From IMG/VR virus record IMGVR_UViG_3300042991_000159, positions 35,796-99,795 of that record: DNA of 64,000 nucleotides; one strand, 5' to 3'. The notes beneath the pieces are model-generated. The model was not told where the DNA came from. It worked only from the letters and a program-made list of their open reading frames with translations, and made no database searches. The translations under genes and the position numbers were made by a program. Of the stretch, positions 51,907-60,212 are shown in pieces (position 1 is the first letter of the stretch; each line of letters opens with the position of its first letter). Origin of the DNA: a virus.

Positions 51907-52335
51907 TTATATACGAAGAAGTAAAGATACTCCAGCCGCTAAAAGAAGAATCCTTGGAATCCAGAACGTAGGACCGGGATATTGTTTTTTCGTAATCCTT
52001 GCAAGTATTCTGTCATAAAACTTTACTGTACCTATATAATACAAGTCAAGTTTCGCAGCAAGGTTATGTATCCCATCAAATAGTGCATATCGGACGAACA
52101 ACCATCCGAGAATAAAGTGTGGTAGAAAGAATCTGTAAAATTTCCAAGGATAAAAAGGATTGAAATAATCCTGATCATATTGCGTATCGAAATACACGAC
52201 AATAATAAGCGCAGGTAGTCCAGCAAGCTTTATAGCTTCAATCATTCCTGCTACGGTTCCTTTACCTCTGAGGGCAAGTCCTTCATGTACTGCCTCAAGT
52301 ATAGTAAAGAATACAATAATCCATAATAATGTCAT
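51907..52335 (-). CDS. Multi-pass membrane protein
   Basis: About four hydrophobic segments; RYALFDGIHNL...YYIG motif. Confidence 0.65.
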   Translation of the reverse strand: MTLLWIIVFFTILEAVHEGLALRGKGTVAGMIEAIKLAGLPALIIVVYFDTQYDQDYFNPFYPWKFYRFFLPHFILGWLFVRYALFDGIHNLAAKLDLYYIGTVKFYDRILARITKKQYPGPTFWIPRILLLAAGVSLLLRI

Positions 52336-52348
52336 AGTGCAAGTTATG

Positions 52349-52403
52349 AAATTTTTTCTGGAAAAATAAAATTTTTTGAAGAATAAAAATTTTTTGGAAA
52401 AAT
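52349..52403. repeat. Three AT-tract direct repeats at the strand switch
   Basis: aaattttttctggaaaaat / aaattttttgaagaat / aaattttttggaaaaat, spaced ~19 bp apart. Confidence 0.65.
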
Positions 52404-52500: not shown

Positions 52501-52755
52501 ATGTTACGAAACATTTCTGTATCGGAGTTCAAGCGGATCGAAGGAGTCGATACCGTTCAGATCGTTAGAAATCCTAATACAACCAAGCTCTTTGCTTCGG
52601 TTGGTAATGGAAAGAATTACCGTGTGGAGGCTGCTATTGATACAGCCAAGCCGGTTGAGTTCTTGTACGACGATGATGCTACCTTGGAAACAGGTGGCAT
52701 TGAGAACGGTTGCTTCATCAATCAGCGTGCTAACAACGTTGTTGCTACCCTGTAG
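52501..52755 (+). CDS. First gene of the early arm (84 aa)
   Basis: ISVSEFKRIEG...IVRNPNTTKLFAS; richer in C-ending codons than its neighbours; has its own terminator. Confidence 0.8.
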   Translation: MLRNISVSEFKRIEGVDTVQIVRNPNTTKLFASVGNGKNYRVEAAIDTAKPVEFLYDDDATLETGGIENGCFINQRANNVVATL

Positions 52756-52764
52756 GACACCAAT

Positions 52765-52806
52765 ACGTCTCTGCATCTGCTATTAACGCAGGTGTAGAGG
52801 CGTTTT
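52765..52806 (+). terminator. Intrinsic terminator
   Basis: ACGTCTCTGCATCTGC-loop-GCAGGTGTAGAGGCGT followed by TTT. Confidence 0.8.
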
Positions 52807-52997: not shown

Positions 52998-53132
52998 ATA
53001 AAGATAAGAAGACGCTCTCTTACCAGCAGAGCGTATAGTTCTCCGTAAAGTTGTATCACTCAATGATTGTTAGTAATCTGATACATAAAACTAGAGTAAT
53101 AGCTGTTTTAAGAAATATCTTCTTATCTTTAT
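52998..53132 (+). ncRNA. Candidate structured RNA element 1
   Basis: 15-bp perfect closing stem enclosing nested hairpins. Confidence 0.5.
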
Positions 53133-53432: not shown

Positions 53433-53588
53433 ATGTCAACATCATGGAGATCGAAAGCAAAGAAATTTTCTCACAGGATAAAGGATGATACAATCTTCCT
53501 CAATCCTCAGAACAACAGGAAACGTATACGTGGAAGGAACGTGCAAGTTGATCCTAAAACAGGTCGTAAAATAGTTCATACATCATGA
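53433..53588 (+). CDS. Small basic protein (51 aa, not in track)
   Basis: MSTSWRSKAKKFSHRIKDDTIFLNPQNNRKRIRGRNVQVDPKTGRKIVHTS*; ATGA overlap with the next ORF. Confidence 0.6.
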   Translation: MSTSWRSKAKKFSHRIKDDTIFLNPQNNRKRIRGRNVQVDPKTGRKIVHTS

Positions 53589-53778: not shown

Positions 53779-54060
53779 ATGAACACTAGAACAATCTCCC
53801 ATAAAAGGGACATGGAAAAAATTACTATTTTTGTTATTCACATTGTAACTGTTATTCTTCTTGCATGGTGGATTGATTCAAAGATTGATCATGTTGCATT
53901 TAGAGAGAGTGAGATGATACAATGGTATTATGATGCTCATTTTTTTGCAAGACTTGGAGTATCTACAATATATATATTTGTGGTAACTGCATTTGTATTC
54001 TTGTGGAGAACAATCATTAAATATCTTGTTAGCTCAATCTTTTATAAGATATATAGGTAA
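53779..54060 (+). CDS. Two-TM membrane protein
   Basis: Two hydrophobic helices; TAATG overlap with the beta-barrel gene. Confidence 0.6.
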   Translation: MNTRTISHKRDMEKITIFVIHIVTVILLAWWIDSKIDHVAFRESEMIQWYYDAHFFARLGVSTIYIFVVTAFVFLWRTIIKYLVSSIFYKIYR

Positions 54061-54569
54061 TGAGAAAACAAGTAATAGTACTTTTAGGAATTTTAGTTGG
54101 CATAGTTCTGTCTGTTAATGGACAGGACTATCGCCAGCTACGTGAGACACCTCACGATGCTATCTACTTAGCCTATCAACCTTGGGATCATGGCTTAGGT
54201 ATAAGATATGATCATCATATCAACTATTGGGCTGGACTATATGGTTCAGCATCTTATGGTAGATTAGGATTGTATAAATATTCTGGATTAGGACAACACG
54301 TAAAATTAACTACTGGTGTTCTTATTCCATTTAAGGATTGGAGAGGTAATCAACATGATTTTACTCTTGGTTTAAACTATCATTGGGTATCTGGTGTAGT
54401 AGAAACTAATGAAACATTTAAAGATAATCCTATATTCCATGAGCCATTCTCATTCGAAATTGGTTTAACAATTAAAATGGAACGCTTTGCTCTTGGTATG
54501 AGAACTGATATATTACGTTGGGAACCATGTATTGATATTGGTATTCCGATAAGAAGAAATTCCCATTAG
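54060..54569 (+). CDS. Small outer-membrane beta-barrel protein
   Basis: Signal peptide MRKQVIVLLGILVGIVLSVNG|Q; about eight alternating amphipathic strands (YLAYQ, GLGIRYD, GLYGSASYG, KLTTGVLI, DFTLGLNY, SFEIGLTI, FALGMRTD, CIDIGIP). Confidence 0.65.
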   Translation: MRKQVIVLLGILVGIVLSVNGQDYRQLRETPHDAIYLAYQPWDHGLGIRYDHHINYWAGLYGSASYGRLGLYKYSGLGQHVKLTTGVLIPFKDWRGNQHDFTLGLNYHWVSGVVETNETFKDNPIFHEPFSFEIGLTIKMERFALGMRTDILRWEPCIDIGIPIRRNSH

Positions 54570-54571
54570 TT

Positions 54572-54915
54572 TAGCTTGTCCGATGAGGGCAATAAAACAA
54601 CCGGACCTAAGAAATCTGGTAGAACCTGAGAAAAGAATAAACAGGATGGGTGTAAAAGAGTCACAAGCAAGATACTTAATCATAAATGCCTTCTGCCGGT
54701 AGTGCAGTGACAATCCATTAACGATACAATATGCTCGTATTGATGAACGTGTACAGCGTAATGTAATTGGAATAAACGATTCCTTATAAAGATGTGGTAG
54801 AAAGAAGATGACTCGCTCTAACTGACAAACACGGAGTATATGCAAAAATGACAACACTTTCGATTCAGCTCCGAGGTGAAAAAAGCTCTAACATATCTTG
54901 GAGTCGTCTTCTTTC
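54572..54915 (+). ncRNA. Candidate large structured RNA (includes element 2)
   Basis: 380-nt gap without a plus-strand ORF, holding at least five hairpins and a 15-bp long-range stem (54800-54814 with 54901-54915). Confidence 0.5.
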
Positions 54916-54950
54916 AATTTTAATTGCGTTTTTAAACTAAACATTTACAA

Positions 54951-55391
54951 ATGAATAATAAATCTAAAACGTTGCCAGTAGAACCTGAGAGGTTAGAGGT
55001 AATCAAAGCTCAAGTCGTTGATGAATTTTATGCAAAGGCTTTACGAAAAGAAGAACTTGAATTTAGTAGTGGTCAAGTTGTTGAAATTATCCATGAAATT
55101 TCTATTACTAAAGAAGAGTGTAAGAACATTACTATGTTGGAAACTGAGCATATCATGACCAACAAAAAGCATATTGAGAACATCTTTCATGCTGTTATTG
55201 ATCGTGCTCACAAAGAAATAGGAGATTTTCATGATTGTAAAAAATGTCCTTTAGAATATCTTTGTGAACCCTCTCAATTTGATAGTATGGAAGAGTTTGT
55301 GAAAGGTCTTGGTTTATCCAAAGAACGTGAAGCTGTTCTTATTCAGATGTTAATGTCTCAACTAAAACATGATCTAAGAAACATGAATTAA
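54951..55391 (+). CDS. Hypothetical protein with CxxCxxxxxC motif
   Basis: 146 aa; DCKKCPLEYLC. Confidence 0.65.
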   Translation: MNNKSKTLPVEPERLEVIKAQVVDEFYAKALRKEELEFSSGQVVEIIHEISITKEECKNITMLETEHIMTNKKHIENIFHAVIDRAHKEIGDFHDCKKCPLEYLCEPSQFDSMEEFVKGLGLSKEREAVLIQMLMSQLKHDLRNMN

Positions 55392-55732: not shown

Positions 55733-55860
55733 AAGATGAAGTCGCTATTAAAAACAGTTCATAAATATTTGGTGAGGGAAGGAGAAAGACCTTCTCTTTT
55801 TGGGAGAAAATGAGAACGCTCCCGTATATTAAATAGGTTATTCTCAATAGGTTTCATCTT
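55733..55860 (+). ncRNA. Candidate structured RNA element 3
   Basis: Closing stem AAGATGAAGTC(GC)TATT / AATAGGTTTCATCTT with two internal hairpins. Confidence 0.45.
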
Positions 55861-55893
55861 GGGGGTATATACAGAAATGTGTGTACCCTTTTT
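55861..55893 (+). terminator. Intrinsic terminator
   Basis: GGGTATATAC-AGAAAT-GTGTGTACCC followed by TTTTT. Confidence 0.75.
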
Positions 55894-55907
55894 ATAAATT
55901 TACTCAG

Positions 55908-56171
55908 ATGCAAAAAAAACAACATCAAAGTAAGAAACAAAATCGTAAACCAAAGCTTTTAGAATGTGTAAGAGTATCAGAGTTTGATATTGCTCGTAGA
56001 ATAGCATTACTTACAAATATCAGACAAGGATATGGGAAAGCTGTACAAGTTGGACTAGATATTAAATATACTGTAGGTACTGAGTTTCATGGTCTTGTTG
56101 AATATACTATTGTCAATGCGAAAATCCATGGATATGAAACGCAGAATATGGAAAATTTTGGAAGAATATGA
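55908..56171 (+). CDS. Hypothetical basic protein
   Basis: Likely ATG at 55908 (MQKKQHQ). Confidence 0.55.
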   Translation: MQKKQHQSKKQNRKPKLLECVRVSEFDIARRIALLTNIRQGYGKAVQVGLDIKYTVGTEFHGLVEYTIVNAKIHGYETQNMENFGRI

Positions 56172-56271: not shown

Positions 56272-56933
56272 TGAATAATTTCAGTGAAAAAAACTACTCA
56301 GAGTTCTTCAAGGAAGACCTCTATGGTGGGTTCGTTGATTATTTGATTAACGAATACGGAGTCAAATATTGTTTGGCTGTTCTTCGGAACGATGATTTAA
56401 TTACCAAGAAGGGAATACATCCTGTATTTCAGAAAGACTTTAAAGTTTTTCTTTCCCTTAATCCTCTGATAAAGAAAGAGTTTGCAAGAAATCACAATCG
56501 TTTCATGCAACTCCGGAATATAGCAGATGAAAATCTTGCTTTTCCTATTGATACTGCTGATGAATCAGTAATGGTTCAACAAAAGATTAGAATACCGGAG
56601 TTTATTTCTGTTAAAGACGATATTATTCGTGCAACAAAGGAAATGAAACGTTCCGCAGCTCCTATGAAAGGACAAATTCTGAAAGGCGAATGGAAAGAAA
56701 AAAGGTATCATTTACCAAAACGCCTTACTATCCATCTCAAAAAGGGATTAGCTATGAGAATGAGAAAGACAACTCTCAATTTTATGGTTAATTCCAGACA
56801 AGAGGCAATCTCTATTATGATTGATCGTTTTACTGACAATGTTGCGTATGCTACAATCCAGAACGAAGAAGAGTTTGTATTTGTAAAACCGAGAAATGGA
56901 AAAATCAAAAGGAGTCGTAAACTTCGTGGTTAG
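56271..56933 (+). CDS. Hypothetical protein
   Basis: Likely ATG at 56271 (MNNFSEKNY), 220 aa. Confidence 0.65.
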   Translation: MNNFSEKNYSEFFKEDLYGGFVDYLINEYGVKYCLAVLRNDDLITKKGIHPVFQKDFKVFLSLNPLIKKEFARNHNRFMQLRNIADENLAFPIDTADESVMVQQKIRIPEFISVKDDIIRATKEMKRSAAPMKGQILKGEWKEKRYHLPKRLTIHLKKGLAMRMRKTTLNFMVNSRQEAISIMIDRFTDNVAYATIQNEEEFVFVKPRNGKIKRSRKLRG

Positions 56934-57219
56934 ATATAACAGTGATCCGGTAGCCGGTATCTCTGAAAACCACTGTTCTGATATATTATCTCTTACTGAC
57001 ACTGATGAAAGAGGTTTTGATACTCAGAATGAAGCTATATTATTTTTGTCTGAATGTACGAGTCCGATAACCTGTCTTGAAGAACTCGTTCCGGAATTAA
57101 AGAATTTAAAGTGTAGTAAAAACTTTAAGTTCTTGCTTCCCGAACGAAATATTAAACCGAAACATCAATTGATGGCTTCAATGGACTATGTGTTACACTC
57201 TACAAAGAGATGGGAATAG
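56896..57219 (+). CDS. Hypothetical protein
   Basis: 107 aa. Confidence 0.55.
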   Translation: MEKSKGVVNFVVRYNSDPVAGISENHCSDILSLTDTDERGFDTQNEAILFLSECTSPITCLEELVPELKNLKCSKNFKFLLPERNIKPKHQLMASMDYVLHSTKRWE

Positions 57220-57227
57220 TATAGTAT

Positions 57228-57358
57228 AGGAATATTGCTTGTTCAACTAACAATTAATTATTATTAATTATCTTTGGGTAGTCATTGGTAAACGTTCTTT
57301 ATTTGATTGTTACGAAAAATCCTATGATACAGATTTCAATAGAACGAGCAATATTCCT
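57228..57358 (+). promoter_or_regulatory. 17-bp inverted repeat enclosing a TATCTTTG promoter element upstream of tmRNA (element 4)
   Basis: AGGAATATTGCTTGTTC (57228-57244) and GAACGAGCAATATTCCT (57342-57358); TATCTTTG at 57269-57276. Confidence 0.6.
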
Positions 57359-57370
57359 TTTTTAAAATAT

Positions 57371-57691
57371 GGGCGTATAATTGGATTTGATTGCGTTGAT
57401 TGGTAAATGTGGCAACCAAGCTGGTGAGCTTTGTACACGCAAACATAAGTGGAGACAATAAAGTTGTACCCATGTACACAAACTACTACTCACGAGTAGC
57501 AGCTTAGTACGGACTTGTCAGAGAGTTGGCAACAGAACTCTGACACATTGTAAGTTTGTTCAAACTATAAATGAACTGGTGGAGCTGACAGATTCATTTC
57601 TGTCTCCTAGTGAATGACAGTAAACTGTCTATGGTTGTAAACTATATTTATGCGACAATGTAAGACGGGGGTTCGATCCCCCCTACGTCCA
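57371..57691 (+). ncRNA. ssrA: tmRNA (transfer-messenger RNA)
   Basis: Acceptor stem GGGCGUA/UACGUCC-A with the G3.U alanine determinant; 5' GGAUUUGA; T-arm GGGGGUUCGAUCCCCC; tag frame 57451-57507 after UAAGU encodes (A)GDNKVVPMYTNYYSRVAA-stop; 321 nt. Confidence 0.93.
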
Positions 57692-57720
57692 CAAATAGTA
57701 TTAACTAAATATAAAAATGT

Positions 57721-58316: not shown

Positions 58317-60212
58317 ATGGATGTTGAGAAAAAAATTTGGGTATATGATCTTGAACAATTAAGGAATTTTCATTCTGGAACCTTCATGGATCGTGATGAC
58401 CCAACTAATGTGAGAGTATTTGTTATCCATAAATCAAGAAATGATATGTTTGAGTACTACAAATTCCTTAAAGAAGAAGTAGCTGGACTCATTGGATTTA
58501 ATTGTATAAATTATGATTATCCGTTATTACATTTCTTTATGGCAATAATGACTATTGCAAATGAAAAAACTACAGCAGATGGATTTAATGAATTATTATC
58601 TGAAGAGTCCCAGAGAATTATAAATACGGAATATTCGGCTATACCTGAGAGAGATACAAGGATACCACAATTAGATTTATATCGAATACATCATTTCGAT
58701 AATAAGGCTAAGATGACGAGTTTAAAATATCTACAAATAAATATTAAATATCATAATGTACAGGATATTCCTTTTGATGAAGATCATTATATTACTGAGG
58801 AAGAGATACCAGAGATTCTTGCTTATAACTTTAATGATGTAGATTCAACCAGAGAGTTCTATTTTCTGAGTGTGGATATGATAGAATTAAGAAAGAAATT
58901 AAGTACAAAATATAGAATAAATTTACGTAATGCAAATGACCCTAAGATTGGTCAGGAGATATTTGGAAGGGAGATTGCGAGGAAATTAAATATAAATTAT
59001 AAAGTTCTCAGAGATATGAGAACATATCGGAGGTCAATAAATTTAAAGGATTGTGTACTTCCACAAATAAAATTCAAGAGCAAAGAGTTCAATAGAATTT
59101 TAGAATTTTTTAAACAGACTACAATAGTAACAACATATAAAGCATTTGAAGAGTCAGTAATATATAAGGGATTTAAGTATGATTACGGAACCGGAGGTTT
59201 ACACGGATGTATAGATTCAGGAGTATATGAATCTGATGAATATTATGAGATCATAGATATTGATGTAAGCTCATATTATCCCAATATAGCGATTCAAAAC
59301 AATTTCTATCCTCAACATTTGGGTGAATCTTTTGTTGAGGTATATCGAGAGATAATTGAGCTTAAGAACGAAGCAGGAAGAATAGGAGATAAAACAACTA
59401 AATCAGGTATGAAATTATCTGCTAATGGAGTTTATGGTAAAAGTAATGATCAATATTCGTTATTTTATGATCCAAAATATACTATGAGAGTAACTATCAA
59501 TGGTCAACTCATGTTATCTATGTTGGCTGAAAGTTTAGCATTGACGTTAGGAGAATTAGTTATTTTACAAGTAAATACTGATGGGATAACTATTAAAATA
59601 CCAAGAAATTATAGAGGTGTAGTAGATAGGATATGTAAAGAGTGGGAAGAGGAAACAGGATTAACGCTTGAGTATGCTCAATATAAGAAGATGGTTATTA
59701 GAGATGTAAACAACTATCTAGCTATTACTACTGATGATAAAGCAAAACCTAAAGGATGTTTCGAGATCATACCAATGCAGAATGGAGCTATCGCATATAA
59801 TAAAAACTGGTCCATGAGAGTTGTACCTAAAGCACTTCATGCGTATTATATAGATGGTATTAAACCAGAAGATTTTGTAGTAACACACGACGATATATAT
59901 GATTTTACTATCGGATTTAGAGCAAAAGGTAGTTGGGATGTATGGGCAACATTTATTGAAAATTGTAACAAAGTCAAGGTAAAACAACAAAAGACTCTTA
60001 GATATTTTATGTCTAAGACAGGTGCAGTTCTTACTAAAGAAAATCGTGATGATGGTAGAATAATATCTCTCGAAGCAAGTAGAACAACTACTATATTCAA
60101 TAAATATGTTGATTTATCAATGGAAGAATATAACATTGATTATGGATATTATTTGAGAGAAATTAATAAAATTATAAATGCTGTAGACGATGGACAACTT
60201 AAATTATTTTAA
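58317..60212 (+). CDS. polB: DNA polymerase, family B
   Basis: Exo I YDLE, Exo II GFNCINYD, Exo III YNFNDV; polymerase motifs DIDVSSYYPN, KLSANGVYG and NTDG. Confidence 0.93.
   Translation: MDVEKKIWVYDLEQLRNFHSGTFMDRDDPTNVRVFVIHKSRNDMFEYYKFLKEEVAGLIGFNCINYDYPLLHFFMAIMTIANEKTTADGFNELLSEESQRIINTEYSAIPERDTRIPQLDLYRIHHFDNKAKMTSLKYLQINIKYHNVQDIPFDEDHYITEEEIPEILAYNFNDVDSTREFYFLSVDMIELRKKLSTKYRINLRNANDPKIGQEIFGREIARKLNINYKVLRDMRTYRRSINLKDCVLPQIKFKSKEFNRILEFFKQTTIVTTYKAFEESVIYKGFKYDYGTGGLHGCIDSGVYESDEYYEIIDIDVSSYYPNIAIQNNFYPQHLGESFVEVYREIIELKNEAGRIGDKTTKSGMKLSANGVYGKSNDQYSLFYDPKYTMRVTINGQLMLSMLAESLALTLGELVILQVNTDGITIKIPRNYRGVVDRICKEWEEETGLTLEYAQYKKMVIRDVNNYLAITTDDKAKPKGCFEIIPMQNGAIAYNKNWSMRVVPKALHAYYIDGIKPEDFVVTHDDIYDFTIGFRAKGSWDVWATFIENCNKVKVKQQKTLRYFMSKTGAVLTKENRDDGRIISLEASRTTTIFNKYVDLSMEEYNIDYGYYLREINKIINAVDDGQLKLF

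Follow-up and report, generated by a model that had tools for sequence, protein, structure and literature searches.

A candidate folded RNA module of about 130 nt in the early arm of a crAss-like phage

The intergenic stretch and its coding content

The window, i.e. the whole 64,000-nt stretch of DNA analysed here, comprises bases 35796-99795 of IMG/VR record IMGVR_UViG_3300042991_000159, a phage genome of 99,795 bases (99.8 kb) that is rated complete. The phage is assigned to the crAss-like phages, as a member of Crassvirales, because its portal protein is ~40% identical to those of phi14:2 and of Bacteroides crAss-like phages (~39% in the case of phi14:2). Its host likely belongs to the phylum Bacteroidota. 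Structural genes extend up to ~52.3 kb of the window and are read leftward; the rightward early arm carries small genes, a tmRNA and a DNA polymerase (58317-60212). Where the two arms diverge the cumulative GC skew turns, and an A/T-rich unit of ~18 nt, present there as three direct repeats (52340-52400), is a candidate for early promoters or an origin. To the left of the window (C1:12774-22339 of the genome), 24 tRNA genes cover most amino acids. Anticodons for stop codons are missing among them, and the phage hence shows no sign of stop-codon recoding.

An earlier note on this DNA had flagged positions 54572-54915 as a densely structured non-coding region of ~345 nt and as a candidate novel large ncRNA. 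The stretch is located in the rightward early arm between the plus-strand genes 54060-54569 and 54951-55391. The product of the upstream gene (54060-54569) is 169 aa long and has a signal peptide, and its body is rich in beta structure and in aromatic residues. It matched no family in Pfam or PHROG; IMG/VR contains five relatives at 36-70% identity. Possibly it is an early-made envelope protein. Indeed, as the note had stated, the gap is richer in G+C than other intergenic DNA. Its G+C content is 0.39, compared to 0.12-0.35 in the other gaps of the early arm and to a window mean of 0.35 (86th percentile).

Related loci were gathered from IMG/VR by means of the polymerase. The closest of these 78 loci, L007, is 70% identical in the polymerase. 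As a positive control, nhmmer recovered the phage tmRNA in five of the loci. Stop codons of all three kinds are present in every plus frame between the two flanking genes, in line with the non-coding nature proposed for the gap. The gene finder called an ORF of 39 codons (54583-54702), which ends in TAG and is followed by 28 further in-frame codons up to a TAA at 54787-54789. Codon scores were -0.11 for the first piece, +0.24 for the second and +0.04 for the joined frame; real early genes score 0.13-0.36. No homologue was found for the read-through product of ORF and extension, and recoding of the TAG was ruled out, given that none of the 24 tRNAs is a suppressor. On the minus strand, a 114-aa open frame (54513-54857) has a codon score of -0.09, matches no Pfam or PHROG family and does not resemble the minus frame of L007 in tblastx. 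A small plus-strand ORF starting at 54849 has 30 codons in the window, compared to 6 in L007. A protein-coding gene at this stretch was rejected on account of the stops in the plus frames, the codon scores of -0.11 to +0.04 and the lack of a match in Pfam, PHROG or tblastx.

The small hairpins listed in the note can be read near 54577-54593, 54601-54621, 54625-54645, 54728-54745 and 54770-54784, and the long-range pair is present as well (54574-54579 with 54664-54669). The description as densely structured did not hold. Folding of the whole 381 nt gave a z-score of -1.4, and 11 of 100 shuffled sequences were as good. The 5' 220 nt reached a z-score of -0.57 (55 of 200 shuffles as good). This 5' part had no match in the relatives by nhmmer or tblastx, and in L007 the equivalent position is held by an ORF. 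The left two-thirds of the gap (54570-54786, plus strand) is thus read as an unconserved, G+C-rich spacer outside the RNA, possibly the remnant of a small decayed gene.

A 3' domain shared with a related phage

The 3' part of the gap gave a marginal nhmmer match in L007. We built a covariance model from the window copy alone, with a closing helix, P1, and a 6-bp inner helix, P2, as the given structure. This single-sequence model matched L007:2283-2415 with 60.5 bits (E 2.6e-11 in 1.09 Mb of relatives' DNA), while the next match had an E-value of 0.2. Blocks of 13, 6, 16 and 14 nt are identical in the two copies and occur in the same order, as are the last six bases of the P2 loop, and the diverged segments between the identical blocks still pair. 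Both copies share the 15-bp closing helix and an inner hairpin of 6-7 bp. In the model alignment 97.6% of the cells pair, and 6 of the 21 pairs are changed on both sides and still paired, a count of little statistical weight that comes from two sequences only and from an alignment fitted to the model. Slid alignments gave 0-2 such compensatory pairs, and 12 of 500 shuffles reached the observed level. RNAalifold returned the same two helices. The structural conservation that the earlier note expected of such an RNA is hence seen for the 3' domain, in one relative, but not for the rest of the stretch.

Two anchor genes are common to both phages (53433-53588 and 55881-56171 in the window; 258-407 and 4126-4362 in L007). 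Between them lie 2.3 kb of genes in the window and 3.7 kb in L007, without recognisable mutual similarity. None of the proteins of this variable island is recognisably shared, and the element is its best-kept feature. It is present once in the 99.8-kb genome and once in the L007 record. The L007 copy starts at the stop codon of an upstream 79-aa ORF. Directly after the element, L007 carries an unrelated G+C-rich fold (L007:2420-2550) with an 11-bp closing stem followed by a U run (z -3.0), for which no match was found in the window.

The element extends over 54787-54920 on the plus strand. It opens with a conserved 13-nt block (54787-54799), located directly 5' of P1 and identical in L007:2283-2295. 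The block starts with the TAA at 54787-54789, which terminates the upstream frame in the window copy, and the upstream ORF of L007 ends there too. The closing repeat that the note had described was recovered by a repeat finder as a 15-bp inverted repeat (54800-54814 and 54901-54915), which is 93% complementary and forms the two arms of P1. Its one mismatch is a U.G pair that is kept in both copies, and three of its pairs are compensatory. P1 encloses 86 nt, within which the internal loop is strongly asymmetric. The 5' side of the loop (54815-54854, 40 nt) contains the conserved 6-mer at 54825-54830 and most of an invariant A-rich 16-nt block (54841-54856), and the 3' side (54879-54900, 22 nt) contains the invariant 14-nt block at 54880-54893. 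In the P2 hairpin (54855-54878), positions 54855-54860 pair with 54873-54878 around a loop of 12 nt, the last six of which are invariant (54867-54872). Three of the six P2 pairs are compensatory; the window copy has two U.G pairs, and the L007 copy forms seven Watson-Crick pairs. P1 is followed by an A/U-rich tail that also comprises the leader of the next gene (54916-54950, with the start codon at 54951). The tail opens with two A and then four U, and a U-rich stretch follows P1 in L007 too.

As a predicted helix P1 is well supported and was found in the single-sequence minimum free energy fold of each copy. P2 is absent from both of these folds and weak in the window copy, and is for this reason regarded as tentative. 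The inner CGGAG/CTCCG pair proposed in the note (54832-54836 with 54869-54873) is readable in the sequence but impossible in L007, and it overlaps P2. The 3' domain as a whole has a fold z-score of -2.7, which is reached by 4.5% of the 134-nt windows in the genome. This value is ordinary for the genome, and stability alone is therefore no evidence for an RNA. Three U.G pairs are present in the window copy, one of them common to L007, and the opposite strand would have C.A mismatches at these positions. Together with the direction of the genes, the U.G pairs point to the plus strand; folding energy did not separate the strands.

Some further sequence features were noticed around the element. 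The same 8-mer is present at 54815 and 54885 of the window and at L007:2215 and 2381, in or beside the element of both phages. It occurs four times in the whole 99.8-kb genome, where ~1.1 occurrences are expected per strand. Pairing of the 13-nt block with the sequence after P1 is unlikely, the two being adjacent in L007 and 20 nt apart in the window. A sequence resembling the 13-nt block was noted at 52112, within a gene of the opposite strand, and was attributed to chance.

Searches for further members and comparison with known RNAs

A third member was found neither by pattern scans of IMG/VR, metagenome contigs and prokaryote genome contigs nor by blastn against GenBank phages. Likewise, models R1 and R2 returned none from the loci of 83 relatives, and none came from ten whole related records or from an anchor-protein scan. 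The element is absent from six other relatives whose upstream region is available. Outside IMG/VR, the closest relatives by polymerase are P0002-P0013 (67-72% identity). Searches with Rfam 15 (4227 models, including 6S, 6S-Flavo, RNase P, SRP, Y RNA-like, self-cleaving ribozymes, GOLLD and ROOL) gave only the tmRNA at gathering score in the window. Between 54400 and 55100 no Rfam match was obtained at E up to 10, and the L007 copy gave none at E up to 1, which agrees with the note's failure to match the region to RNase P, 6S, SRP or known ribozyme cores. No promoter was recognised for the element, and a scan for intrinsic terminators (hairpin loop of 3-8 nt, then a U run) called none at 54800-54935. 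ARAGORN reported only the tmRNA, at 57371-57692, within the window, the 24 tRNAs being all located elsewhere. A dispersed repeat or miniature inverted-repeat element was ruled out, as there is one copy per genome and the arms covary instead of staying constant. No complementary target of the invariant blocks was found in the phage genome, so that any RNA partner would be one of the host. From these comparisons the element appears to be small, structured, conserved and new, and forms with its L007 copy a motif of two members outside all catalogued families. What stands of the proposed novel large ncRNA is therefore a new structured element without Rfam match, with a size of ~130 nt rather than ~345 nt.

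Abundant early long non-coding RNAs from the g004-g006 intergenic regions, of unknown function, have been described for phi14:2, a crAss-like Cellulophaga phage (Drobysheva et al., 10.1101/2020.03.07.982082). Like the element, they are non-coding and intergenic and come from the rightward early arm of their phage. However, the non-coding stretch of phi14:2 measures ~1.7 kb compared to ~130 nt, and the phi14:2 RNAs were seen by RNA-seq, whereas the element is known here from sequence alone. Model R1, run with filters off on the first 9 kb of the phi14:2 genome (NC_021806, 1-9000), gave no match, with a best E-value of 0.17. Phi14:2 is the only experimental precedent for early intergenic RNAs of crAss-like phages.

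The outline of the element also resembles known structures of other kinds. Stem-loops at gene ends in phage operons include intrinsic terminators and the RNase III sites of the T7 early transcript. These and the element have in common an intergenic position in a polycistronic early region, a long helix at a gene end and U-rich sequence after the helix. In contrast, the helix of the element encloses 86 nt with a hairpin of its own and 49 invariant unpaired bases, and it fails the terminator consensus scan. 6S RNA and 6S-Flavo consist of a closing helix, a large internal loop and a terminal hairpin, and 6S RNA binds the RNA polymerase holoenzyme and templates a product RNA. The consensus fold of the element may follow this outline, but its bubble is strongly asymmetric, with 40 nt on one side and 22 nt on the other, and its P2 hairpin is tentative. 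A further parallel would be the likely host phylum, Bacteroidota. Unlike 6S and 6S-Flavo RNAs it is scored by no Rfam model at the E-values given above, and its size is ~116 nt.

Folded elements are present at other sites of the early arm as well. A second module (57228-57358; L007:5402-5550) lies between gene 56896-57219 and the tmRNA and has a closing stem of 16-17 bp followed by U6. The window and L007 copies are 84% identical, and three of the stem pairs are compensatory (nhmmer E 7.5e-11; z -4.6 and -4.0). The module is syntenic with its upstream gene, but two small ORFs lie between it and the tmRNA in L007. The tmRNA itself (57371-57694; Rfam 72 bits, tag peptide ending in AA) is kept in at least five related phages (L007 and L015-L018). 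Another long-stem element precedes the first rightward gene (52998-53132, z -3.6). Its 5' arm contains an 11-nt motif (53008-53018) that is shared with the region of the element's 5' arm and with L007:2206-2222. This element was not found by the model of the element at 54787-54920, and neither it nor a long-stem element at 55733 has a match in the relatives. Grouping of the four long-stem elements of the early arm as one family was rejected, since the model misses the other three.

A possible small RNA from a gene end and its alternatives

The interpretation that we tentatively prefer is that 54787-54920 (plus strand) is a folded RNA module of ~130 nt within the rightward early transcripts, a small RNA that stems from the 3' end of a gene and would carry a binding platform. 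The module would be transcribed as part of these transcripts. Its two ends would pair to form P1 and enclose the large asymmetric loop and the short hairpin P2. P1 and the U-rich tail would define and protect the ends of the RNA at the end of the upstream gene. The invariant unpaired blocks would be the working part, i.e. a docking site for a protein or an RNA of host or phage. Helices with compensated changes next to unpaired blocks that are kept letter for letter are what would be expected of an RNA with loops that a partner recognises. A gene-specific leader is made less likely by the independence from the neighbouring genes, and the module would be autonomous, a small RNA from a gene's 3' end and not the regulator of one particular gene. 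A gene-end module in which the helix sets or protects the ends is suggested by the location of the L007 copy at a stop codon, by the U-rich stretch that follows P1 and by the second module of similar build (57228-57358). A further-reaching proposal, which we consider quite unlikely, is that the element represents a new class of trans-acting phage RNA, a decoy or sponge that is delivered with the earliest transcripts and kept while the surrounding protein genes are replaced. Such a decoy could imitate 6S RNA in miniature or could trap a single-strand RNA-binding protein of the host.

The same gene-end features would fit a purely cis-acting signal, which could be a terminator of unusual form or a helix for RNase III-type processing or stabilisation, with a very large structured loop and no RNA function of its own. 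We rank this reading second after the small RNA, and regard it as unlikely. It is favoured by the location directly after a stop codon in L007, by the U-rich sequence after P1 in both copies, by the U6 at the end of the module at 57228-57358 and by the recurrence of long closing stems in the early arm. However, the terminator scan made no call, the loop of 86 nt is enclosed by a helix whose tail has a run of only four U, and neither termination nor RNase III cleavage needs letter-perfect conservation of 49 unpaired bases. The inverted repeat could also act at the level of DNA, as a conserved joint at which early gene cassettes are swapped by recombination, or as a site bound by a phage regulator or a replication protein. 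One copy per genome near the replication genes, flanking genes that differ between the two phages, and the A-tracts that accompany the inverted repeat would agree with this. Against this, the arms covary, and the U.G positions would be mismatched in hairpins of DNA or if read from the opposite strand. We consider a role at the DNA level distinctly improbable; moreover, the GC-skew turn and the direct repeats sit 2.4 kb to the left of the element, at 52.3-52.4 kb.

Two readings are given still less probability. That the L007 likeness is due to chance or to a recently transferred fragment in a decaying spacer, or that the stretch is coding after all by way of the minus-strand ORF or the small plus-strand ORFs, is very improbable. 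Only two members are known, the gene caller picked the 39-aa ORF and the 114-aa minus frame is open. Chance is opposed by the E-value of about 3e-11 for the model match, and a recent transfer would give even similarity instead of perfect blocks that alternate with diverged, still-pairing segments. Against coding speak the codon score of the minus-strand ORF, its missing Pfam and PHROG family and its unlikeness to the L007 frame, as well as the different lengths of the plus-strand ORF from 54849 in the two phages. Least probable of all is one large structured ncRNA over the entire 54572-54915, the version put forward in the note. The elevated G+C content of the whole gap and the lack of a good coding frame would fit it, but the 5' 220 nt fold like shuffled sequence, are unmatched in any relative and have an ORF in their place in L007.

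The small-RNA module preferred here would belong to a known kind, the uncharacterised structured RNAs of phage early regions. With two members known at present, it adds one to the small RNA motifs of phages that are still uncharacterised. The crAss-like group counts among the most abundant of known phages, and little is understood of its early programme; an element that outlasts all neighbouring genes offers a compact, testable handle on the early RNA layer.

Near the start of the early arm, at 52501-52803, a small G+C-rich gene (0.445, 84 aa) is followed by a terminator with a 16-bp stem (52765-52803), the one strong canonical terminator that the arm contains. The region of this gene is conserved in L016 and L018.
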